Positions 44,866 through 63,999 of a stretch of 64,000 bases of DNA are shown here, piece by piece. The stretch comes from a bacterium (lineage in GTDB: Bacteria; Margulisbacteria; Marinamargulisbacteria; GCA-2716485; JAYNIM01): assembly GCA_038109055.1 (NCBI GenBank), contig JAYNIM010000003.1:20269-84268 (forward strand). The letters run 5' to 3'. Numbering within the stretch: the first letter of the stretch is position 1; every line of letters begins with the position of its first letter. The notes beneath the pieces were generated by a model that saw only the letters and a program-made list of their open reading frames with translations, made no database searches and was not told the origin of the DNA. A program made the position numbers and the translations under genes.

Positions 44866-45360
44866 TTAACGATATTCTTTCTTATTTCTACAGAAAACAC
44901 AGAGCCTATCTTGCATTGTCCAACTTGACTGACATAGCATACACCAAACATAGCCCATGTCTTTCATTCTTCTATTTTTAAATTTTATCTTCTCCGCTAG
45001 CGTCTTTTTTTCAATGTTACGCGCTTTTACTTGACCATTTGATTGTTTTTTTTTCGTATACGTTACAATAAGTTTTATTCCTGAAATGTTTCTTGACCGC
45101 CGTACATATTGATGTAACTTTTGGATAATTTTTTTTTCAAAAAAAGAAATTTCAGTTTTCCAACTAGGATTTTCAGATTCAATAATTATCTTTTTATTTC
45201 TACAATAAGAAAAATGTAAAACACTCTCTAAATTCCCCATAATTTTAGGCCAGGCTTTAGAAACCTCGTGATTCAATGTTAGCGTTTTAGCTGCTGATTT
45301 TACAACAGTGGATACATACCCATACTTAATTTCTGATAAACAGTTATTAAGCTGCTTCAT
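44866..45360 (-). CDS. dciA: DciA/DUF721-family protein with C-terminal CxxC...CxxC
   Basis: W..IMG...IIIES.NPSW..EISF.EKKII.KL...ISGIKL; directly after recF; C-terminal CMLC and CVFC. Confidence 0.7.
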   Translation of the reverse strand: MKQLNNCLSEIKYGYVSTVVKSAAKTLTLNHEVSKAWPKIMGNLESVLHFSYCRNKKIIIESENPSWKTEISFFEKKIIQKLHQYVRRSRNISGIKLIVTYTKKKQSNGQVKARNIEKKTLAEKIKFKNRRMKDMGYVWCMLCQSSWTMQDRLCVFCRNKKEYR

Positions 45361-46459
45361 AGCAATGAATTTTTCCTTTTTCCACTTGGTATACGTCAAT
45401 ATCATTAAATAGCCCTATATCCTCACTATTTACCCCTGTTAAAAATAGTTGATCATATTTTTTTAAATATGTTGCTAACTTTGTCTTTACCTCGCTATCT
45501 AACTCTGCAAATATGTCATCCAATAATAAAATAAGGGGCTGTTGAAACTTTTCAGATACAAGATCCCAATGAGCTAGTTTCGTGAGTACGGCAAATACCC
45601 GATTAATCCCCTTAGAAAAAAACCTAAATACACTTTGATCGTGTGATATTGCATCAAAATCATCTCTATGTGGACCTACTAGACTATAGCCCAGAAAACG
45701 TTCTTTCTGTTTATCTTCTTGTAATTTATTAAATAATACTTCTTGATATAATGGCCGTGAAAACTCCTCGATATCTAGGCGATGAAACATATACTTAAAT
45801 TGGATATTTTCTAATATATCCACAAAAAATATTTCTTGTGTCTTTTTAAAAAATTCAGATAATCGTCTTAATCCCTCTATTCTATATTCTAATACAGAAC
45901 CTGAAAGTATCGCTAACTGTTTATTTAAAATATCGCCATGTTTTTGATCCACAACATCTTGTTTGATCCATGCATTTTTTTGTTTACAGACACTTTGAAA
46001 TCGGTTTAAACTTTGACGATACTCTGTGAAATATTGTGTACAAAATGTGTCCAAAAAATGTCGTCGTTGAGCTGCTGAGTCTTGAAACTGACGATTTATA
46101 TCCGATGAAAGGTAGTCAGTAAAACAGTTTTTTGTAAATGTTTTTTTGTCTCTTGAGCATTGTTTGTTAATAACAACAGATACACCTTCTGATTTAGACA
46201 ATGATAAATAAACCTGTTTTTGTTCCTCTTCGTTAAGCTGCCACTCCCCCCCAATTACCGCTCTTTCTTTAGAGAATTGAATTAACGCGTTGCGGTCTTT
46301 TTCTTTTAACCATCCCCCAGTTAACAATATATAAATGGCTTCTAAAATCGTTGTTTTGCCTTGATTATTTTTGCCTATAAAAAAAATATATTTATTTTGT
46401 TTAACTACGTTTAATTGATTTATGTTTCTAAAATTCTGAATCCATACTTTGGCTAACAT
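45347..46459 (-). CDS. recF: DNA replication/repair protein RecF
   Basis: NFRN, GKNNQGKT..LEAI, RR.FLD, GPHRDD, LLLDD..AELD. Confidence 0.92.
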   Translation of the reverse strand: MLAKVWIQNFRNINQLNVVKQNKYIFFIGKNNQGKTTILEAIYILLTGGWLKEKDRNALIQFSKERAVIGGEWQLNEEEQKQVYLSLSKSEGVSVVINKQCSRDKKTFTKNCFTDYLSSDINRQFQDSAAQRRHFLDTFCTQYFTEYRQSLNRFQSVCKQKNAWIKQDVVDQKHGDILNKQLAILSGSVLEYRIEGLRRLSEFFKKTQEIFFVDILENIQFKYMFHRLDIEEFSRPLYQEVLFNKLQEDKQKERFLGYSLVGPHRDDFDAISHDQSVFRFFSKGINRVFAVLTKLAHWDLVSEKFQQPLILLLDDIFAELDSEVKTKLATYLKKYDQLFLTGVNSEDIGLFNDIDVYQVEKGKIHCYEAA

Positions 46460-46462
46460 ATA

Positions 46463-47593
46463 TTAGCTTTGATTAAATTCTCTTGCTCGAATTGGCATCA
46501 CAATATAGGTGTAATTTTCATCACTTGGTCGATCAAATTTGCAGGGACTTACAGCATTATTAAAGTTAATAACTAAATCATCATCCTCCATGACTCTTAA
46601 ATAGTCCAAAATTAATTTCACATTGAATGTAATCGTTAATTCACCAGCCCCCTCTAAGCTATTCGCTTCCAATACTTCTTTAAAATCACCTAATGCACTA
46701 GCTTGAGCGACGATCGTTATACTATTTGTTGCATAGCTAAATTTGATAATATCGTTGGATGCTGAGGCAATAATTGATGCACGTTCGCAAGAACTTAGTA
46801 ACTGCCGTCTAGAAACTTTCACTTTATGCTCAAACTCACTAGGTATAACCTTATCTATATCAGGAAATTGTCCTTGAATTAATCTTGAAATCAATAAAAA
46901 TTGTTCGCAAGTAAAGGATATTTGTGTCTCAGAAAATGAAATTTCAACAGTTTTATTTGGATCAAAACTTTGTAATAATCTAAAGACTTCGTTAATAGCT
47001 TTAAATGGTATGATCTTTGATATATGTGCTATATCTTGATTATAGTGAAGTGTTTTTACGGCTAATCTGTATCCGTCTGTCGATATAAAACTAACAGAGT
47101 TGTCTTTACACTCTATCAAGACTCCGTTAAAAAACTTTTTTGTATCATCGTACGATACTGAAAATATAGTAAATTTAATTAAATCTAATAGTTCTGAAAC
47201 TTTTAACGTTAATTTCTGACCACTTTCTACGTTAGGAAAGGCAGGATATTCGGCAATATTTTCACCTAATAAATTAAACTCTATACCTTCGGTTTTGATG
47301 TTTAGTGAATTTTTCTCATTGACGCTTAATTCTAAATGATCACTTTGTACTTTACTTATAATTTCATTTAATGTTTTGGCTTTTACTAAAATAGCGCCAT
47401 CTGTTTCACTTTGTTTAACGGTAATATGATTCTCTATCCCCATCTCTAGATCATTCCCCCTTACGATTAATGAGCCTTGATTTAGTGAAAGGTATAGATT
47501 TTGAAGTACAGGTAAACTGCTTTGCTTTGGTATGGCTTTTTCTACCATTGCGCAAACATCTTTAAATTTTTTTCTTTCACAACTAAATTTCAT
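46463..47593 (-). CDS. dnaN: DNA polymerase III beta clamp
   Basis: LPVLQN, NDLE, STDGYRLA, SRLIQGQFP, FNVKLILD, IVMPIR. Confidence 0.97.
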   Translation of the reverse strand: MKFSCERKKFKDVCAMVEKAIPKQSSLPVLQNLYLSLNQGSLIVRGNDLEMGIENHITVKQSETDGAILVKAKTLNEIISKVQSDHLELSVNEKNSLNIKTEGIEFNLLGENIAEYPAFPNVESGQKLTLKVSELLDLIKFTIFSVSYDDTKKFFNGVLIECKDNSVSFISTDGYRLAVKTLHYNQDIAHISKIIPFKAINEVFRLLQSFDPNKTVEISFSETQISFTCEQFLLISRLIQGQFPDIDKVIPSEFEHKVKVSRRQLLSSCERASIIASASNDIIKFSYATNSITIVAQASALGDFKEVLEANSLEGAGELTITFNVKLILDYLRVMEDDDLVINFNNAVSPCKFDRPSDENYTYIVMPIRAREFNQS

Positions 47594-47599
47594 TAAAGC

Positions 47600-47806
47600 C
47601 TCCTATAGGGTGTTATTATATATATTATATATTTATATATTTATTAATATTAATATGCCTTGTGTATATGTGGATTCCTTGCATAGATTCTACTTGAATT
47701 TTTTGTTGATAACCTTGTGCAAAAGATCTGTATTGATTCTTGATAAAGATATGGATATTGATGTTCTATATATTGTTAATAGGTTCTTCACAGGGTTCTC
47801 CACATA
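47600..47806. other. oriC, unwinding sub-region (dnaA-dnaN intergenic)
   Basis: AT-only tract 47613-47656 ending in trios TAT TAA TAT TAA TAT, then GCCT, then overlapping boxes TGTGTATAT/TGTGGATTC (47661-47677). Further boxes TGTTGATAA, TGTGCAAAA, TTCTTCACA, TTCTCCACA. The + strand is C-rich in sampled dnaN lines and G-rich in sampled dnaA lines. Confidence 0.8.
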
Positions 47807-49150
47807 TTATTCTTGTTTTAAAACATTGATTAGAAAGGTAATTGATTTTTGTGTTTCACTGTTATCTTTTAACTCTTTCTTTACTTTTTCGCAGGCATGA
47901 ATCACGGTAGTATGATCTCTATTTCCAAATTTCTTACCAATTTCGGGTAACGATGATTTGGTTAATTCGCGTGATAAATACATGGCTATTTGGCGTGCAT
48001 GAGCAATTTCTTTTGTTCTGCATTTAGAATTTAAATCTTGAACACTAATATTAAATAGGTCAGAGGTCTTTATTTGTATTCTCGAGATAGTGATGGGTTT
48101 TTCATTTTTCAGTGTCACCATGTCGCTAATTACTCTACTAGCAATTGATAATGTCATGGGGGTGTCCATGAGGGATGTATATGCGAAAACTCTATTTAAA
48201 GCTCCTTCCATTTCTCTAACGTTTCCCGACATTTGACTCGCTATAAAATGAAGAATTTCATCGGCTAAAACTGTTTTATTTAATTCTGTTTTCTTCTTTA
48301 AAATTGCAATTCTTGTTTCTAATTCAGGTGGCTGAATATCCGCAATTAATCCCCATTCAAAGCGAGTTCGAAGTCTTTCCTCTAGTGTAAGAATATTTTT
48401 TGGAGGACGATCGGAGGTCAAAATAATCTGTTTTTTTTGACTATGTAAATCATTAAATGTGTGAAAAAATTCTTCTTGGGTTTGTTCTTTTCCAGATAAA
48501 AACTGAATATCATCTACAATTAATACATCCACAAATCTATATTTATCACGGAATGTTTCTAGTTTTTTATCTTTAATTGCATTAATCATGTCGTTTGTGA
48601 ACGTTTCACAGGACACGAGTAATATTTTTGCGTTTGAATTTTTTTCTAATACTTGATGTGCAACGGCGTGTAATAGATGTGTTTTACCTAAACCTGCAGA
48701 TCCATAAATGAAAAGTGGGTTGTATATTTTTGCGGGTTCTTTCGCTACTGCATAGCAGGATGCATGTGCAAAGCGATTGTTTTGGCCAACCACAAATGAA
48801 TCAAAACTGTATATTGGGTTAAATAATTGTTTGTTTTTTGTTGACTTTTCTTTATCAAAAATAGATAGTTGTTCTGTTTCTTTAGGTAGTGTAGGACTTA
48901 TATTGTAGCTGATAATTACAGGGTGATTGTGTTGTTCAAATAAGCTTAATACTATTTTTTCGCAAAAGTCCTTAAACCAGTTTTTTGAGAATTCATTTGG
49001 GACTGATAATAATAGATTTGAGTTTTCAAGTGATATGGGGGTTGCAGAGGCTAAAAATGTTTGATAAGCAGAATTAGTTAATGTTTTATTTAAGTTTTCT
49101 TTTACTTTATCCCATATATAATCTAATGATATCTCTGTCGCTTTATTCAT
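47807..49150 (-). CDS. dnaA: Chromosomal replication initiator DnaA
   Basis: YNPLFIYGSAGLGKTHL, DDIQF, QEEFFHTFN, RL.TRFEWGL, NVREMEGAL, RDHTTVIHA. Confidence 0.99.
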   Translation of the reverse strand: MNKATEISLDYIWDKVKENLNKTLTNSAYQTFLASATPISLENSNLLLSVPNEFSKNWFKDFCEKIVLSLFEQHNHPVIISYNISPTLPKETEQLSIFDKEKSTKNKQLFNPIYSFDSFVVGQNNRFAHASCYAVAKEPAKIYNPLFIYGSAGLGKTHLLHAVAHQVLEKNSNAKILLVSCETFTNDMINAIKDKKLETFRDKYRFVDVLIVDDIQFLSGKEQTQEEFFHTFNDLHSQKKQIILTSDRPPKNILTLEERLRTRFEWGLIADIQPPELETRIAILKKKTELNKTVLADEILHFIASQMSGNVREMEGALNRVFAYTSLMDTPMTLSIASRVISDMVTLKNEKPITISRIQIKTSDLFNISVQDLNSKCRTKEIAHARQIAMYLSRELTKSSLPEIGKKFGNRDHTTVIHACEKVKKELKDNSETQKSITFLINVLKQE

Positions 49151-49329
49151 AAATGTAATTTTCTTATTTAAAGTTAGGAATTTATTTTACTAAACTACTA
49201 TATAGTTCTGAGCGATTCATGTAAAGGTTTGTATGTGACGAATAATTTGCGTGGTATTGTTTTGTAAGGTATTAGAGAGCATAAGACTTATCAAATTTTT
49301 ATTTTCTTGTATGAGTGTTGATGGGAGAA

Positions 49330-49775
49330 GTTATTACCAAGTTATACACAGAGCTATTTATATATATTTTTTTTTAGTATAGGGGGGGGATTTTAGCTAC
49401 TGTTGTATATTTTTTTTTACAGTATTGGGTATAAAGCTTGTTTTTATCACAAGTTATACACAGTTTTTTTTTTTTTAATTGGGTGACTGTAATTTTTGAA
49501 TTTTTTGTTATATATGAGTCTATGATTGTTTTTTTTAAGGTTATATTGAGATTGATTTTCTTATTTTTATAAAAGTAAGCGTATGGATTTCATGTATAGA
49601 TAAAGGTTCTTTTTTTTGTAAAACTGAAAATAGTTGAGGATGTTTTTAATAACTTATCCACATTTTTTTAATCAAATATCTTTGTTTGAATTAGTGGGGT
49701 AATGTGGGTTCGTTTTTTTTTTAATAGTGAATGATAGGCGTCTTTATTTTTTATTTATCACAGGTTATACACAGG
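49330..49775. other. oriC, upstream DnaA-box cluster
   Basis: TTATACACA at 49342, 49454 and 49765; TTATCCACA at 49654; TTTATCACA partners at 49443 and 49754. Confidence 0.8.
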
Positions 49776-49808
49776 TTGTTTTTATTGAGTATTTATGTAT
49801 ATGGATAG

Positions 49809-52669: not shown

Positions 52670-52775
52670 TATTTTTTTTAGTATATACAGTTTGTACTGA
52701 AAAGTCTTGAAGGATTTAGAAAAAATTTGTATTTATTTGTGGGTAAGCTTCTTTTTTATTTAAAAATTATACATA

Positions 52776-52804
52776 TAGACGATAAGTCTAATAAAAGATA
52801 TAGT
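52776..52804 (+). promoter_or_regulatory. sigma70-like promoter of the KaiC-like operon
   Basis: TAGACG-N17-TATAGT, 14 nt before the ATG. Confidence 0.5.
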
Positions 52805-52818
52805 GGTTTATATTTCAT

Positions 52819-53535
52819 ATGGAACGATTAAATAGTGGTATAGAGGGCTTAGATAAGGTAATTTATGGGGGCTTTCCCTCGGATCGAGCTTATGTTATTT
52901 CGGGAGAGCCTGGAACTGGTAAAACTATTTTTTCTTTACAATATTTGTTAGCAGGATTACATAAAGGTCAAAGGGCTATTTATGTATCTATTGATGAAAA
53001 GCCAGCGCATGTTATTTTGGATGCGTTGTCTTTAGGATGGGATTTGCAATCGTTTTTAGACAACGGTCAATTGAAAATTATTGATGTTACTAGGTATTTT
53101 TCTTCTGCTAAGACGAATGATCAAGATGCTGTTTCTTTAAATCGTGCGATAGAGGATATTTTGGGGTTTGTCAAAGAAAGTGGTGCAGAACGTTTGGCTA
53201 TAGATCCAATTGCGCCGATTATTTTTAATCCACGTCATGATGCTCAGACTATGGTGTCGTATATTCGTTCTTTGGTTTTTGAGCTTGAAGAATGTAGAGG
53301 GTGTACAACCTTGATGACGTCTTATGTACCTGTAGGTTCTCAGAGGCTTAGTCTGCATGGTGTTGAGGAATATGTTGCCTCGGGTATTATTGTTTTAAAA
53401 CTCAAGCAAAATGATCAAGGTAAAAATATTCGAACTGTTGCGGTACGAAAAATGAGAGGAACTCGTATTGAATTATCAGAGTATAATTGTGAAATATTAC
53501 CGGAACGGGGCTTTGTTCTTCGGCAACCAGTATGA
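52819..53535 (+). CDS. Single-domain KaiC/RAD55-family ATPase
   Basis: SGIEGLD..I.GG.P, GEPGTGKT, YVSIDE, RLAID, GVEEYVASGIIVL, RTVAVRKMRG. Confidence 0.88.
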   Translation: MERLNSGIEGLDKVIYGGFPSDRAYVISGEPGTGKTIFSLQYLLAGLHKGQRAIYVSIDEKPAHVILDALSLGWDLQSFLDNGQLKIIDVTRYFSSAKTNDQDAVSLNRAIEDILGFVKESGAERLAIDPIAPIIFNPRHDAQTMVSYIRSLVFELEECRGCTTLMTSYVPVGSQRLSLHGVEEYVASGIIVLKLKQNDQGKNIRTVAVRKMRGTRIELSEYNCEILPERGFVLRQPV

Positions 53536-54641
53536 CTAAAATTTTAGTTGCTGATGATGAACATAATATTCTTGCTCTTTTAGAGATTATTCTTAAAGAC
53601 CTAGGTGCAACTGTAGTGTGTGCAGAGGATGGTCAGGTTGCTATTGATAAGCTTCAGGTTGAGAAGCCTGATTTAATTATTACGGATGTTGTGATGCCTA
53701 ATAAAAACGGTTTTGAAGTTTGTCGACATGTTCGAAGTATGCCTGATATAGCAGATACACCTATTATTATTTTGTCTGCTTTAGGAGATGAATATAATAA
53801 AATTACGGGGTTTGAAGAGGGGGCTGATGATTATGTTATTAAGCCCTTTAATGTCGAAGAGCTCAAAGCTCGAGCGAAGACCTTGTTGTTGAGACATGCC
53901 TCTAGGCAGGCTCACTTTTCTACAGTACCTCAGGCTTCAGTCACCATGGATGATCCTAAATTAATTCCAAGTAGTTATGCTGTTTTGGATATGAAGATGG
54001 GGGGAGGGATGCCAAAAGGGTCTAATATTTTGACGTTGGGATCGCTAGGTTTAGGCAAGTCTTTTTTTTGTCGCAGCTTTATTTGTGAGGGGCTTAAGCG
54101 AGAAGAGCCTTGTTTGTTTATTGCATTAGATGATGATCCTAAAAAAATTAGGCAAAGTTTGGAGCAGCAATTACCTGAGCCCTTGTCTTTTTATGAAGAT
54201 GCAGGCTTGTTTCGTTTAGTTGATGCTTTTTCGTGGTCGTCGATGACACAAGACAATGAGGAACAGTACGCGGTAAATGGTCATTTGGAGTTAACCCAAT
54301 TGTCGGGTGTTATTTCGGATGCAAGTTATGATTTGGGGCAGACTGTACAAGAAAAGAGAGGGGGGCGACGAGTGATTGATTCTATTTCTAGTTTGATGAT
54401 TCATTTTGATTTGGCTGCAGTTCAGCGTTTTTTAAACCAAATTGCGCGAACATCTATTGCCTTGGGAGATGTTACTACCTTGTTTTTGATGGAAGATGGT
54501 ACGGTTACTGAACAGGATCTTAACCATATTAAATATGTTATGGATGGTATCATTGAATTTAATTTGTATCAAAATCAGCGGGCCGTAAGAGTGACGTCCA
54601 TGAAATGGTCGTCGTATGATGGCGATTGGGTTGTTTTTTAA
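53532..54641 (+). CDS. Response-regulator receiver fused to a KaiC/RAD55-like ATPase domain
   Basis: REC: ILVADDE, DLIITDVVMP..NG, ILSA, GADDYVIKPF. Then LD..MGGGMPKG, GSLGLGKS, FIALDD, RVIDSIS, MDGIIE. ATGA overlap with the upstream gene. Confidence 0.85.
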   Translation: MTKILVADDEHNILALLEIILKDLGATVVCAEDGQVAIDKLQVEKPDLIITDVVMPNKNGFEVCRHVRSMPDIADTPIIILSALGDEYNKITGFEEGADDYVIKPFNVEELKARAKTLLLRHASRQAHFSTVPQASVTMDDPKLIPSSYAVLDMKMGGGMPKGSNILTLGSLGLGKSFFCRSFICEGLKREEPCLFIALDDDPKKIRQSLEQQLPEPLSFYEDAGLFRLVDAFSWSSMTQDNEEQYAVNGHLELTQLSGVISDASYDLGQTVQEKRGGRRVIDSISSLMIHFDLAAVQRFLNQIARTSIALGDVTTLFLMEDGTVTEQDLNHIKYVMDGIIEFNLYQNQRAVRVTSMKWSSYDGDWVVF

Positions 54642-61490: not shown

Positions 61491-63038
61491 TTGTTTCTGT
61501 TTTTAATTTGGGGCAATATTTTGAGCTTAGTGGGTTTTGTTTTATTTCTTTGCTTATTGGGGGCTATTTTTGCTCTTTTTTTAAACTATAAATTTTTTAA
61601 TTTTCATTTTAAGTTCAATAATTTTCTAGCGTGGATTGTTTCGTTTGGGCTTGTTTTTTTGAGTTTTTTCGTACTTTATTTGTTTGTTCAGAGAAATATT
61701 TTTTATGCTGCTATTGTTAATCCTTTCTTGTGTTTGTTATATGTTTGTTTTGTTGCCTTGTTTTTTCATGACATTCGTTTATTTTTACAAGATAAAACAT
61801 CTAAGTTCTTTTTTATTTCCTATCAAAACTATGACCTGCTTTTACCAAAATTAACTAAAGTTTTGGGATTCTGTATTGACTTGGATCAGTTACTTCTTTG
61901 TTTTAAAGATACATGGTTCCCAGAATTAAATGTTAGCCGTTTTATCTTGTTGATTCCTAAAGAGCAAGAAGATGTGTGGCAACATGATTGGGTTTGTTAT
62001 CTTATTTCAAATATGGAAACTCAGGTTTTTGAAGTCAGTTCTAAAGAGATGACAATTTTTTCTCATGTGTCTTCTGATACGCAACTTTATTTTTATGATC
62101 AAATTTCGCCAAAACTTAAAGTTTTTTTTGATAGGCATCATCTTTCTTTATTATTACCTTGTTTTGGACCTGCTCGGCTGAATGGATTTTTCTGTATCGG
62201 AAAGAAAAAAAATGATAAAACTTTTTATAATAATGATATTTCCTTGTATAAAGTCTTGGCGGGACATATCGCATTAGCGTTACAACATATTCAACCCTAT
62301 GAATCGATTAAGCGTTCGTATGAAAAATATCGTGAAAACTTGGAGAAAGCATCTCAGCAAAGTGCCTTTTCTAGTTTAAGTATGGGAATTTCTCATGAAA
62401 TACGTAATCCTATGGCGGGTATTTTGACTCGTACGGAATTGCTTGAAAAAGATCCGGATAATGTAGAAGATGTGAAAGAATTTGTTCAGCGAGTTAAGCG
62501 AGATATTTTTCGTGTTTTGAATATTACGGATATTATGTTGCGTTATGGTAGTCCTGTTGTAAAGGATATGACCTTGATTTCTATGCCTGAACTTTTGGAT
62601 GATATTTTGTTTATGGCGAAAGGCAAGTGTCAACAAACTGGTATTCGTATTCAAAAAAATTTTATTGCTAATTTAAAGCCGGTTATTGGGGACTCTAATC
62701 GATTATATCAAGTGTTTACTAATATTGTTTTAAATGCGATAGAAGCAATGTCGGATTCGTCTGAAAAACTACTTTCTATTAGTACCTTGTATCATACTTT
62801 TACGAGTCAGGGAAAATTAACACCTGGGGTAGTGGTTATTATTCAAGATACAGGTTGCGGAATGTCTGCAGAAGTTTTACAACGAATTTTTGATCCTTTT
62901 TATACGACAAAATATAAAAATACGGGCTTGGGATTGTCTATTGTTGCTAAGGTTGTTAATGATCATAATGGATTGTTAAAGATCTTTTCTACTCCCAAAA
63001 AGGGGACAGAGTTTCGTATTTCTTTAGTTCAGGGATAG
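61491..63038 (+). CDS. Membrane sensor histidine kinase (TM-GAF-HisKA-HATPase)
   Basis: Hydrophobic N-terminus, GAF-like GFFCIGKK...Y...D...L, SHEIRNP, QVFTNIVLNA, DTGCGM, IFDPFYTTK, GLGL; start uncertain. Confidence 0.88.
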   Translation: MFLFLIWGNILSLVGFVLFLCLLGAIFALFLNYKFFNFHFKFNNFLAWIVSFGLVFLSFFVLYLFVQRNIFYAAIVNPFLCLLYVCFVALFFHDIRLFLQDKTSKFFFISYQNYDLLLPKLTKVLGFCIDLDQLLLCFKDTWFPELNVSRFILLIPKEQEDVWQHDWVCYLISNMETQVFEVSSKEMTIFSHVSSDTQLYFYDQISPKLKVFFDRHHLSLLLPCFGPARLNGFFCIGKKKNDKTFYNNDISLYKVLAGHIALALQHIQPYESIKRSYEKYRENLEKASQQSAFSSLSMGISHEIRNPMAGILTRTELLEKDPDNVEDVKEFVQRVKRDIFRVLNITDIMLRYGSPVVKDMTLISMPELLDDILFMAKGKCQQTGIRIQKNFIANLKPVIGDSNRLYQVFTNIVLNAIEAMSDSSEKLLSISTLYHTFTSQGKLTPGVVVIIQDTGCGMSAEVLQRIFDPFYTTKYKNTGLGLSIVAKVVNDHNGLLKIFSTPKKGTEFRISLVQG

Positions 63039-63042
63039 ATTT

Positions 63043-63999
63043 TTATGTCTTATGGGGGGTATTTTTATGTGTTTTAAGTGCATCAACAAAGGGGAGAAGC
63101 CCCTCTTCTAAAATTTCGTTTGGAATGTTTTGATTATCAGGAAGATGGTTGTTTCTTAGTTCTGGAAAAAAAGAATAAATATCGCTCATTTTAAATGGTT
63201 CTTGTGAGGTTAATTTTGTTTTGCTGCATTCGTTTAATAACGACATTTTTTGATTATTTGGGATCACATTTTCTGTAATCCAATTTTGTAATTTTGGGAT
63301 TATTTTTTTTAAGCGTTGCAAGCGAAGATTTTTTGAAATGGCGTTATTTAATGTTTCTTCTAAAAAAGGTTTATTTAGGTAGTCATGTGCGCCTAATTGT
63401 AATGCTTGGATGGCAATATCAAGTTCTTGATAGGCAGTTATGATGATGATGGAACAGTTTTTTTGATATTTTTTAATGTCCTTAATAAGTAATATTCCTG
63501 TTGTATCGGGAAGGTAAATATCTAAAAGTATCAGATCTATGGGTTCGTTTTTTAAATGATTTTTGCATTCTTTTCCGGTTTCTGCTGTTATTATGTTAAA
63601 TTTTGGCTGTAGTAACTTTTTTAATGCTAAATTGATGGACTGATCATCTTCCACAATTAAGATTGTATTTTTTTCTGTGCTTTGAGCATTGCTTTGGAAC
63701 TCATTGACTAATTTTTTTTGAAAACTAGCCAGCATTTTTTTATCCTCGTTTTGTGGTATTGTATTAGTTGTTTCCGTGTTCCATTTAATTTCCATATTTG
63801 TTTGTTCTATGACAATACGTTCTGTTAGGTCTTTTAATTTTTTTGTGTAATCTATATTTTTAACGGCTAAGGATAATTTATTTAGTAGGCTTCCTTTTTT
63901 AAAGGGGCTTAATAAATAATCAAAGGCGCCTGCTTTTAGTAGATCTACAGCTTCTGTTAAATTTTCATGATCCGAAAATATAATAAACTCAGGGCTGTT
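63043..63999 (-). CDS. Tandem-receiver response regulator, 5'-truncated by the window
   Basis: The frame stays open to the window end. The extra 68 codons (EFIIFSDHENLTEAVDLLKAGAFDYLLSPF) form the end of a first REC, followed by a canonical REC (ILIVEDD, LLDIYLPD, IITA, YLNKPF). Confidence 0.85.
   Translation of the reverse strand, partial: NSPEFIIFSDHENLTEAVDLLKAGAFDYLLSPFKKGSLLNKLSLAVKNIDYTKKLKDLTERIVIEQTNMEIKWNTETTNTIPQNEDKKMLASFQKKLVNEFQSNAQSTEKNTILIVEDDQSINLALKKLLQPKFNIITAETGKECKNHLKNEPIDLILLDIYLPDTTGILLIKDIKKYQKNCSIIIITAYQELDIAIQALQLGAHDYLNKPFLEETLNNAISKNLRLQRLKKIIPKLQNWITENVIPNNQKMSLLNECSKTKLTSQEPFKMSDIYSFFPELRNNHLPDNQNIPNEILEEGLLPFVDALKTHKNTPHKT

Follow-up and report, generated by a model that had tools for sequence, protein, structure and literature searches.

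Two overlapping genes, here called ORF A and ORF B, lie on the plus strand of the 64,000-nt stretch of Margulisbacteria DNA that was analysed (the window). ORF A is predicted to encode a single-domain ATPase of the KaiC family, and ORF B encodes a response regulator in which a disordered linker leads from the receiver to a divergent KaiC-like domain. The features of the locus, and the more distant genes that bear on its reading, are as follows.

52670..52818, plus strand: AT-rich intergenic region, common to ORF A and a divergent znuA-like gene
52819..53535, plus strand: ORF A, predicted single-domain KaiC-family ATPase of 238 aa (PF06745) with all catalytic motifs
53532-53535, plus strand: ATGA overlap of the ORF A stop codon (TGA) and the ORF B start codon (ATG), indicating translational coupling
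53532..54641, plus strand: ORF B (369 aa), a response regulator with receiver, disordered linker and divergent KaiC-like domain
53541..53876, plus strand: receiver (REC) of ORF B, residues 4-115 (PF00072, 92.2 bits, cut-off 30.2)
53982..54602, plus strand: KaiC-like domain of ORF B, residues 151-357 (PF06745, 86.8 bits, cut-off 26.6)
45347-49150: dnaA-dnaN-recF
61491-63038: histidine kinase (HisKA and HATPase_c), 7 kb from the pair and adjoining another response regulator

In the window, the pair is flanked by the znuA-like gene and purA. A promoter-like site in the intergenic region (52776-52804) is a consensus match only, as the nine sites found, compared to a mean of 8.3 in shuffled sequences, are not above chance, and a terminator scan of the region likewise gave nothing above the shuffles. 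Four DnaA-box-like sites, including the sole perfect one in the window, lie at 49342-49773 and the minimum of the cumulative GC skew falls at 46-48 kb, which together place oriC about 3.0-3.6 kb upstream of ORF A. The original prediction, which had described two ATGA-coupled genes about 3 kb from oriC and a kinase at 61491, is borne out by these observations. The host genome (1.8 Mb, 93% complete) encodes only five receiver proteins, of which ORF B is one, suggesting that ORF B is a major regulator in this organism.

Catalytic residues of the two proteins

ORF A matched the Pfam KaiC family (PF06745) with 197.9 bits (cut-off 26.6) and stayed far below the NCBIfam cut-offs for clock KaiC (104.4 vs 546.25 for TIGR02655 and 140.1 vs 408 for NF006799). 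The translation and alignments place its Walker A motif at G29-T36 (G29-EPGTGK35T), the catalytic segment IDE60KP with D59-E60, the Walker B aspartate at D129 and the motifs GVE183E184YV and VRK211MR213GT, the latter carrying the K211/R213 finger; these align with FEESP, GVEEFV and LKLRGT of the KaiC CI domain. Among 21 homologues, residues K35, E60, D129, K211 and R213 are all either unchanged or conserved in no fewer than 90%. The sequence of ORF A scored 111 bits to KaiC CI and only 46 bits to CII of the same chain. Its structural model (pLDDT 88.8) superposes on the KaiC CI domain 5yz8_F with Z 30.0 and an rmsd of 1.6 Å over 211 residues, and on PH0186 and PH0284 with Z 29.0 and 28.7, respectively. 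Structure was discarded as a means of telling CI from CII, since the two Z scores (30.0 vs 29.6) are a tie. ORF A also matched the RadA paralogue SSO2452 (2w0m, E 1.7e-21). By its motifs and scores, ORF A is the CI-like protein of the two and has a full catalytic set.

In a word-based search for longer forms of ORF A, which such forms may escape, 196 proteins were found, and the 120 that were listed are double-domain KaiCs with at most 40% identity, none of them fused to a receiver. A role of ORF A as a defence-system protein was rejected, as PADLOC gave only a weak mad8 match (21.4 bits, E 3.7e-5); ORF B had no match among the PADLOC defence models.

The receiver of ORF B has a pocket formed by D8, D9, D52, S82 and K104, with D52 as the predicted phospho-acceptor. 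D9, D52 and K104 do not vary among 21 homologues, and conservation of D8 and S82 reaches at least 90%. It is nearest to the OmpR/PhoB type (receivers of RpaB, YycF and PhoB, E 1e-32 to 1e-35). As judged from its sequence, the receiver has an intact and conserved phospho-acceptor pocket.

The KaiC-like domain of ORF B retains Walker A (G170-SLGLGK176S) and the Walker B aspartate, with a DDD stretch (D200-D202) replacing the catalytic glutamate pair and S356-M-K358-W359 standing where KaiC has the K-x-R-G finger. It lacks about 20 C-terminal residues that are present in ORF A and KaiC. Counts of alignment columns in 21 ORF B sequences showed that the P-loop lysine is kept in 18 and that DD occupies the catalytic-glutamate columns in 16, while K358-W359 is conserved in at least 90%. 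The glutamate pair and trans-acting K-x-R finger expected of a competent hydrolase are hence present in ORF A and missing from ORF B, and the residues kept and lost are complementary between the two proteins. When both were aligned with cyanobacterial KaiC, the columns of the CII phosphosites S431 and T432 were found to hold E183-E184 in ORF A and K334-Y335 in ORF B, so that neither has a Ser or Thr there. These results agree with the original description of a CI-like first gene with Walker A, GVEEYV and a KMRG finger, and of a second gene with an intact receiver and a KaiC-like domain that keeps Walker A and has its finger and phosphosite replaced.

The model of ORF B has a pLDDT of 88.6, with residues 128-140 below 50. 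The best solved relative of its KaiC-like domain is PH0284 (66 bits), and the domain superposes on 2dr3_F with a TM score of 0.79 and an rmsd of 2.7 Å; the Foldseek comparison of whole ORF B with whole KaiC (rmsd about 15 Å) is not meaningful across both domains. The domain contains an insert in common with non-clock single-domain proteins, relatives for which taxon names are mostly missing. Of the 22 relatives scanned, 4 have a REC-KaiC module of the ORF B type joined to a SARP DNA-binding activator, which fits a regulatory, nucleotide-binding oligomerisation module. More distant leads are REC-KaiC clusters in the ESM Atlas, labelled 'Chloroflexota' and 'Acidobacteriota'.

Conservation of the pair and its neighbours

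We then examined the distribution of the two genes, a check that had been proposed along with the original prediction. Among 146 Margulisbacteria genomes, ORF B was present in 59, ORF A in 56 and both in 53, and in all 53 the two genes are adjacent on one contig. ORF A lies directly upstream of ORF B in 19/19 full-length loci from named genomes, including two Abditibacteriaceae, and in 14 of these loci the genes overlap or are separated by no more than 3 nt. Among 401 Chloroflexota-binned genomes searched, ORF B was found in one, and there too the pair is adjacent. The pairing of ORF A and ORF B is far beyond chance.

Each gene also occurs alone. Six genomes, from two families, hold ORF B with no match to ORF A at E 1e-20; one of the six is a single 1.77-Mb contig that is 95% complete, and in these genomes ORF B adjoins recO and an NtrC-type regulator. 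Three genomes have ORF A-like genes without ORF B, and so do four from the phylum to which the Abditibacteriaceae belong, where the identity is 40-42%. This suggests that each protein can work without the other. In addition, 7 of 40 further loci contain three KaiC-like genes, a degenerate A', then B, then an active A'', implying that the stoichiometry is not fixed. Two-component genes accompany some of the loci: in Abditibacteriaceae, genes for a receiver protein and a PAS hybrid kinase come after A-B, and the second ORF B copy of one of the genomes without ORF A sits within the order kinase / REC / REC-GGDEF / B / NtrC / kinase. No conserved histidine kinase adjoining the pair was seen in Margulisbacteria.

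The genomes with a lone ORF B or a lone ORF A-like gene, including those in another phylum, would be expected if the two proteins act separately. ORF B would then be a self-contained regulator with its P-loop domain serving as output, as a homo-oligomer or with another partner such as a sigma-54 activator, while ORF A would be an independent ATPase and their adjacency inherited synteny. Indeed, the whole region is syntenic (ruvC-ruvA-[A-B]-hisZ-hisG), and the two proteins belong to different halves of the KaiC tree (see below), so that they are not recent tandem duplicates that would be expected to co-assemble. However, the genes have remained adjacent in every phylum genome holding both despite rearranged surroundings, and also in two further phyla-level groups; together with the tight spacing or overlap and the complementary pattern of catalytic residues, this makes separate action unlikely.

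We next looked at the neighbouring genes for an indication of the output. The immediate flank was DNA-related in 17 of the 40 further loci (parA in six, ruvA in four, uvrD in four, one of which also has dnaA, and recO in three), a class that was set after looking at the flanks. In one locus, ruvA overlaps ORF A by 1 nt, in another it overlaps an ORF A-like gene by 4 nt, and in a third, ORF B and a uvrD-like helicase gene overlap by 22 nt; in both Abditibacteriaceae, uvrD is directly upstream of the pair on the same strand. Metabolic flanks were also seen among these loci, namely purA (nine), hisZ (seven) and a GlmU-like gene (five). A role of the pair as a RuvB substitute behind ruvC-ruvA was rejected, as ruvB is present elsewhere in the genome (468.6 bits).

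These neighbours, the distance of only some 3 kb to oriC and the match of ORF A to SSO2452 would fit a RecA paralogue that mediates DNA transactions (in recombination, repair, replication restart or segregation) under the control of phosphorylation, along the lines of Rad55-Rad57 or aRadC; the receiver would tie activity to a stress or cell-cycle signal. On the other hand, the 17 loci represent only four arrangement types from related genomes, and parAB, gidAB and dnaA are origin-proximal anyway, so that the DNA-related flanks may be largely inherited synteny. Since the class was defined post hoc, other loci have metabolic flanks, the flanks in the window itself are the znuA-like gene and purA, and RuvB needs no replacement, we consider a DNA mediator improbable. 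In summary, the neighbour genes point only weakly to DNA recombination, repair or segregation as the output.

Relation to the KaiC clock

Margulisbacteria are the sister phylum of Cyanobacteria, so the host is, as had been supposed, a relative of the clock-bearing lineage. A domain tree was built to place the two proteins; it is unrooted and drawn at the midpoint, the ORF A-family profile having missed the RadA, RecA and DnaB cores meant as outgroups. All 14 CII domains formed one clade without the ORF B domain (SH-aLRT 95), which instead grouped with archaeal-type single-domain KaiC-like proteins, and the ORF A and ORF B domains fell in different halves of the family tree. An AU test rejected a single clade of ORF B and CII (p 0.0044, lnL difference 50.3). 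As ORF B is not CII-like, the two genes do not represent the CI and CII halves of a divided KaiC; of the split KaiC module originally proposed, the CI-like nature of ORF A stands and the CII-like counterpart does not. The placement of ORF A relative to the CI/CII duplication is not settled by the AU test (p 0.55).

The prediction that kaiA and kaiB are missing extends from the window to the genome, where, at 93% completeness, KaiB (PF07689) and KaiA (PF07688) had no match while the Synechococcus controls matched. Among the 146 genomes of the phylum, KaiB was found in one, within a kaiC-kaiB-kinase cluster, and this genome also holds the pair; the presence of both in one Margulisbacterium implies that the pair is not a clock substitute. 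Clock KaiC carries CI and CII in tandem on one polypeptide, compared to one domain in ORF A and a receiver plus one domain in ORF B. On these sequence features, the pair is likely a signalling switch and not a circadian oscillator. The proposed bearing on clock origins has become weak, given the AU result for ORF A and the genuine kaiC-kaiB-kinase cluster that coexists with the pair.

It is possible, and to our minds quite doubtful, that ORF A descends from a single-domain branch that left the KaiC stem no later than the CI/CII duplication and has survived in the phylum that is sister to Cyanobacteria. With ORF B, it would then form an ancestral KaiC machine set by a histidine kinase and acting on the chromosome near oriC, in replication, recombination or segregation, rather than on the timing of transcription. 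A split or ancestral KaiC timer would have ORF A as the CI ring and ORF B as the CII ring of an hourglass or clock that a kinase, in place of KaiA/KaiB, resets. This reading draws on the CI-like score and GVEE motif of ORF A, the sister phylum and the AU result for ORF A, and is very hard to reconcile with the rejected ORF B and CII clade, the non-clock insert and missing C-terminal segment of ORF B, its replaced glutamate pair and finger, the lack of Ser/Thr at the phosphosites, the true kaiC-kaiB-kinase cluster that shares a genome with the pair and the lack of any A-REC-B fusion in the 120 entries listed from 196 longer proteins.

A putative receiver-controlled ATPase complex

We favour, at about an even chance of being right, a reading in which ORF A and ORF B would assemble into one RecA-type ATPase complex that is switched by phosphorylation of D52 in the receiver. 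The A:B complex would likely be obligate. One of the few histidine kinases in the genome would phosphorylate D52 of ORF B. The KaiC-like domain of ORF B may still bind nucleotide, as its P-loop is kept, and would hydrolyse it poorly, having Asp for the catalytic Glu pair and no K-x-R finger to give to a neighbouring subunit. ORF A would be the working ATPase, with ORF B joining or capping a ring of ORF A, so that mixed A:B interfaces would differ from A:A interfaces. By analogy with receivers that gate NtrC-type ring ATPases, phosphorylation would alter the pairing of the OmpR/PhoB-type receiver and hence change assembly or ATP turnover. The output could be a protein-protein or a protein-DNA action; in other lineages, the flanks point weakly to sigma-54 or two-component regulators.

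A literature search returned no paper on this gene pair. The claim of an undescribed system nevertheless has to be narrowed, since regulators that combine a receiver with an inactivated KaiC are already catalogued for archaea. Following Makarova et al. 2017, the available text of Galperin et al. 2018 (PMC5847659) lists iKaiC-REC of Methanosarcinaceae, REC-DUF835 and REC-MEDS as response regulators whose KaiC-like output is inactivated; their role is presumed to be in signalling, and experimental work has characterised none of them. As far as that description goes, the iKaiC-REC type likewise joins a receiver to a divergent, probably poorly active P-loop domain of the KaiC superfamily. Compared by description only, ORF B differs in being bacterial, in having its receiver at the N-terminus (the reverse order) and in keeping the P-loop lysine, and its gene, unlike that of the archaeal type as described there, is locked to an upstream, apparently catalytically complete CI-like gene.

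The RecA-type fold of ORF A is also that of circadian KaiC (KaiABC of Synechococcus, KaiBC of Rhodobacter), whose CI domain is 30-35% identical to ORF A and has its Walker motifs, GVEE motif and K-x-R finger as well; the pair differs in having single domains on two proteins, no phosphosites, no KaiB or KaiA, and an ORF B that is not CII. Proteins of the UPF0273 type (PH0284, PH0186) and SSO2452 resemble the pair in size, fold and motifs. In contrast to the pair, they have no receiver and no fixed arrangement of an active and a degenerate gene, and their functions are poorly known. In environmental Pseudomonas, modules of a KaiC-like protein, a histidine kinase plus a response regulator of the single-domain type have been proposed to act in stress signalling (bioRxiv 10.1101/2022.01.26.477890). 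In the available part of that preprint, a non-clock KaiC homologue is similarly wired to two-component proteins; however, the Pseudomonas KaiC is double-domain and autophosphorylating with a separate receiver, whereas the receiver of ORF B is fused to a degenerate single domain. In NtrC/DctD-type ring ATPases, which serve as a working analogy only, the phosphorylation of the receiver governs how an oligomeric P-loop ATPase assembles or how active it is. They belong to the AAA+ sigma-54 activators and carry a DNA-binding domain, while the pair is RecA-type and, except for the SARP-fused relatives, has none.

KaiC-family ATPases beyond the cyanobacterial clock occur widely and have hardly been studied. 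With only two proteins, the pair is a compact and conserved system whose classical receiver appears to be wired directly to a RecA-type ATPase; the Asp-phosphorylation input can be imposed in vitro, and assembly and ATP turnover are measurable. The recurring DNA-repair and origin-proximal neighbours provide a testable lead to the output. With regard to clock evolution, a CI-like single-domain protein is common in a phylum that is nearly devoid of KaiB. For the organism itself, ORF B, as one of only five receiver proteins, is likely among the main regulatory routes.

Architecture and motifs of the gene pair

The two genes of the pair are coupled by an ATGA, in which the start codon of ORF B (ATG) overlaps the stop codon of ORF A (TGA). 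Their neighbours in the window are a znuA-like gene in divergent and purA in convergent orientation, and the RNB-dsRBD gene and dnaA-dnaN-recF lie on their upstream side.

Features of the pair and the origin region
44866-45405, minus strand: DciA-like ORF, following with dnaA-dnaN-recF
45347-49150, minus strand: dnaA-dnaN-recF, beside the candidate oriC
49151-49808: candidate oriC, a 658-nt spacer upstream of dnaA
49809-51638, minus strand: RNB-dsRBD protein, 609 aa, TTG start
52819-53535, plus strand: ORF A, 238 aa
53532-54641, plus strand: ORF B, 369 aa

By Pfam, A is a KaiC-family protein (PF06745, 197.9 bits; cut-off 26.6). In B, residues 4-115 matched Response_reg (PF00072, 92.2 bits), an OmpR/PhoB-like receiver (REC), and residues 151-357 matched PF06745 (86.8 bits). 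The clock-KaiC models of NCBIfam scored far too low, with 104 bits where the cut-off is 546 and 140 where it is 408. In the alignment, A matched the first KaiC domain (CI) with 111 bits and the second domain (CII) of the same chain with 46 bits. We then compared the motifs of A and B with those of five cyanobacterial KaiCs from named genomes, which bore out the original reading of an intact finger (K-x-R) in A and an altered finger and phosphosite in B.

Motifs of A, B and the two domains of clock KaiC
Catalytic pair: A, IDEKP; B, LDDDP; CI, FEESP; CII, YEESR
Phosphosite region: A, GVEEYV; B, NHIKYVMDG; CI, GVEEFV; CII, SHISTITD
Finger: A, RKMRGT; B, TSMKWS; CI, LKLRGT; CII, FKMRGS

Among 21 homologues of A, there is no variation at G29, G32, G34, K35, D129 or K211, and conservation is 90% or higher at E60, E183 and R213. 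In 21 homologues of B, D9, D52 and K104 never vary, D8, S82, K358 and W359 reach a conservation of 90% or more, and 18 of the sequences retain the P-loop lysine. The motifs and their conservation thus suggest that A looks like a competent ATPase and that B is, as predicted, a phosphorylatable receiver joined to a nucleotide-binding, catalytically altered domain. An insert of B recurs in non-clock single-domain relatives, which extend about 20 residues beyond the C-terminus of B.

The structure model of A (pLDDT 88.8) matched CI (Z 30.0, rmsd 1.6 Å over 211 residues) and CII (Z 29.6) in a tie, followed by PH0186 (Z 29.0) and PH0284 (Z 28.7). The model of B (pLDDT 88.6) has two domains with a disordered linker at 128-140, and its nearest single-domain structure is PH0284 (TM 0.79, rmsd 2.7 Å).

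Conservation and locus variants

The pair is a real, conserved module, as the original prediction had proposed to check: A lies directly upstream of full-length B in 19 of 19 loci from named genomes, with a gap of at most 3 nt or an overlap in 14, and two of these loci are from Abditibacteriaceae (43% identity). A search at E 1e-30 found B in 60 of the 146 phylum genomes, or 59 after removal of a receiver-only match (G070). A is present in 56 (E 1e-20) and both genes in 53, where they are neighbours on one contig in every case. The best 120 of 1151 relatives of B are full-length REC+KaiC proteins with 54-100% identity, the 100% match being the window's own protein; those named are mostly Marinamargulisbacteria or Margulisiibacteriota, and a few are labelled bacterium, Rickettsiales or, once, a Thermoproteota archaeon. 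An exhaustive search with the KaiC-like part of B yielded just 25 clusters (E 1e-30). Of the 401 genomes searched at the level of Chloroflexota, one had B-type domains, and there too A lies upstream; in the phylum holding Abditibacteriaceae, there was a strong match in one of 201 genomes and an A-like gene without B in four more.

We inspected nine loci and then 40 more, picked among the 59 carriers by the length of their contigs; of these 40, 30 are A-B, seven have B between two KaiC-like genes (A'-B-A'') and three have B alone. In the three-gene loci, A' is degenerate and A'' appears active, with motifs closest to CI. Such loci (L089, L090, L122, L124-L127, L129 and L140) belong to other Margulisbacteria families; their A'' carries FEEP and RKIRGT, and the row always has a fapA-like gene, which is divergent, on one side and hisZ-hisG on the other. 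In two families, B as a rule occurs by itself (six genomes in which E 1e-20 gave no A; L088, L091, L094, L128, L130 and L141), with a divergent recO on one side and, downstream, an NtrC-type sigma-54 response regulator and then a patatin-like gene. A second B copy in one genome (G081) sits in a row of kinase, REC, REC-GGDEF, B, NtrC and kinase. An A-like gene stands alone in three genomes, with ruvA and hisZ on either side. SARP (BTAD)-REC-KaiC-like architectures (619-638 aa) were found in four of 22 more distant relatives scanned. In these metagenome proteins (P0256, P0257, P0259 and P0278), a SARP-type N-terminus with BTAD precedes the receiver and a B-type KaiC-like domain, joining a transcription activator to the same module as in B.

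Relation to clock KaiC

The domain tree held 80 rows cut from 66 proteins (IQ-TREE, LG+C20, quick search, midpoint root only); its single-domain rows are the best matches of B, and hence a biased sample, and it leaves out some A and B orthologues. One split (SH-aLRT 98) put B and the single-domain proteins on one side and CI, CII, A, A'' and A' on the other. A is monophyletic (SH-aLRT 100), B and its distant relatives form one clade (SH-aLRT 100), and all 14 CII domains fall in a clade excluding B (SH-aLRT 95). Constraining B to join CII cost 50.3 lnL and was rejected (p-AU 0.0044); grouping the domains of all double-domain KaiCs to the exclusion of A was not rejected and was marginally better (p-AU 0.55). 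Hence, the tree and AU tests place A on the KaiC-proper side, either before or after the CI/CII duplication, and give B a different origin; the pair is not a KaiC cut in two, contrary to the original 'split' reading.

A genuine kaiC accompanies the pair in one 3.3-Mb Margulisbacterium (G069). It encodes 485 aa with two KaiC domains and stands elsewhere in the genome, in a row with kaiB (102 aa) and a histidine kinase gene (L096, G069:C10:88500-94500). No second KaiB occurs among the 146 phylum genomes, so this one was probably acquired.

Genomic context and proposed function

The pair had been placed near oriC, at a distance (about 3 kb) that agrees with the four DnaA-box-like sites within 49342-49773 (49342, 49454, 49654 and 49765, among them the window's only perfect TTATCCACA) and with the change of sign of the GC skew at 46-48 kb. 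The 609-aa protein beside the candidate oriC combines RNB (RNase II/R, residues 28-320) with a C-terminal double-stranded-RNA-binding motif (531-594), an unusual domain combination, and its gene lies in the window's lowest-GC part (about 29%).

Among the 40 loci, 17 have a DNA-related immediate flank (parA in six, ruvA in four, uvrD in four, one with dnaA, and recO in three), a class defined after inspection. Other flanks are purA (nine), hisZ (seven), fapA (seven), a GlmU-like gene (five) and NtrC (three), with single cases of a Ser/Thr kinase, a low-molecular-weight phosphatase, a PP2C phosphatase and CdaA. Overlaps of ruvA with A (1 nt, L021), of B with a uvrD-like gene (22 nt, L017) and of ruvA with an A-like gene (4 nt, L093) argue for co-transcription in some lineages. 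In the window's genome, ruvA lies just beyond the window end (C3:84893-85075) and ruvB elsewhere. Since the loci are related, show four arrangement types and were classed post hoc, a DNA-related output is a lead only. One lineage (L107, L108 and L114) has a same-strand row of RelA/SpoT, Ham1 (ITPase), A, B, a uvrD-like helicase and a radical-SAM gene, combining alarmone, nucleotide-sanitising and repair genes.

The window's genome (G000) encodes few kinases and only five receiver-domain proteins. The HisKA kinase at 61491-63038, correctly located by the original prediction, adjoins another regulator, one of the five receiver proteins (63043-63795, minus strand), which lies tail to tail with it.

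In a Pseudomonas preprint (bioRxiv 10.1101/2022.01.26.477890), double-domain KaiC homologues are reported to have a kinase and a single-domain regulator as interaction partners. Among the papers searched, none names both Margulisbacteria and KaiC, and of the names looked for that describe a receiver-KaiC architecture, 'KaiC-REC' alone appears, solely in Galperin et al. 2018 (PMC5847659). The tables there list iKaiC-REC (nine proteins, Methanosarcinaceae), which with REC-DUF835 and REC-MEDS is described as an uncharacterised archaeal regulator.

An obligate A:B complex is argued against by the B-only and A-only lineages and by the three-gene form. The best reading of A-B is a receiver-gated hetero-oligomeric ATPase. 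The analysis shows the anatomy of the pair, how it is conserved and that the genes are coupled, and we infer binding of A to B, phosphorylation of B and an output. Hydrolysis would be carried out by A, and B would be the regulated subunit, binding nucleotide and having no finger; phosphorylation of the receiver aspartate may alter assembly or turnover. The pair is a bacterial variant of receiver/KaiC-like regulators that have already been catalogued, and most probably works as a phospho-switched ATPase rather than as a clock.
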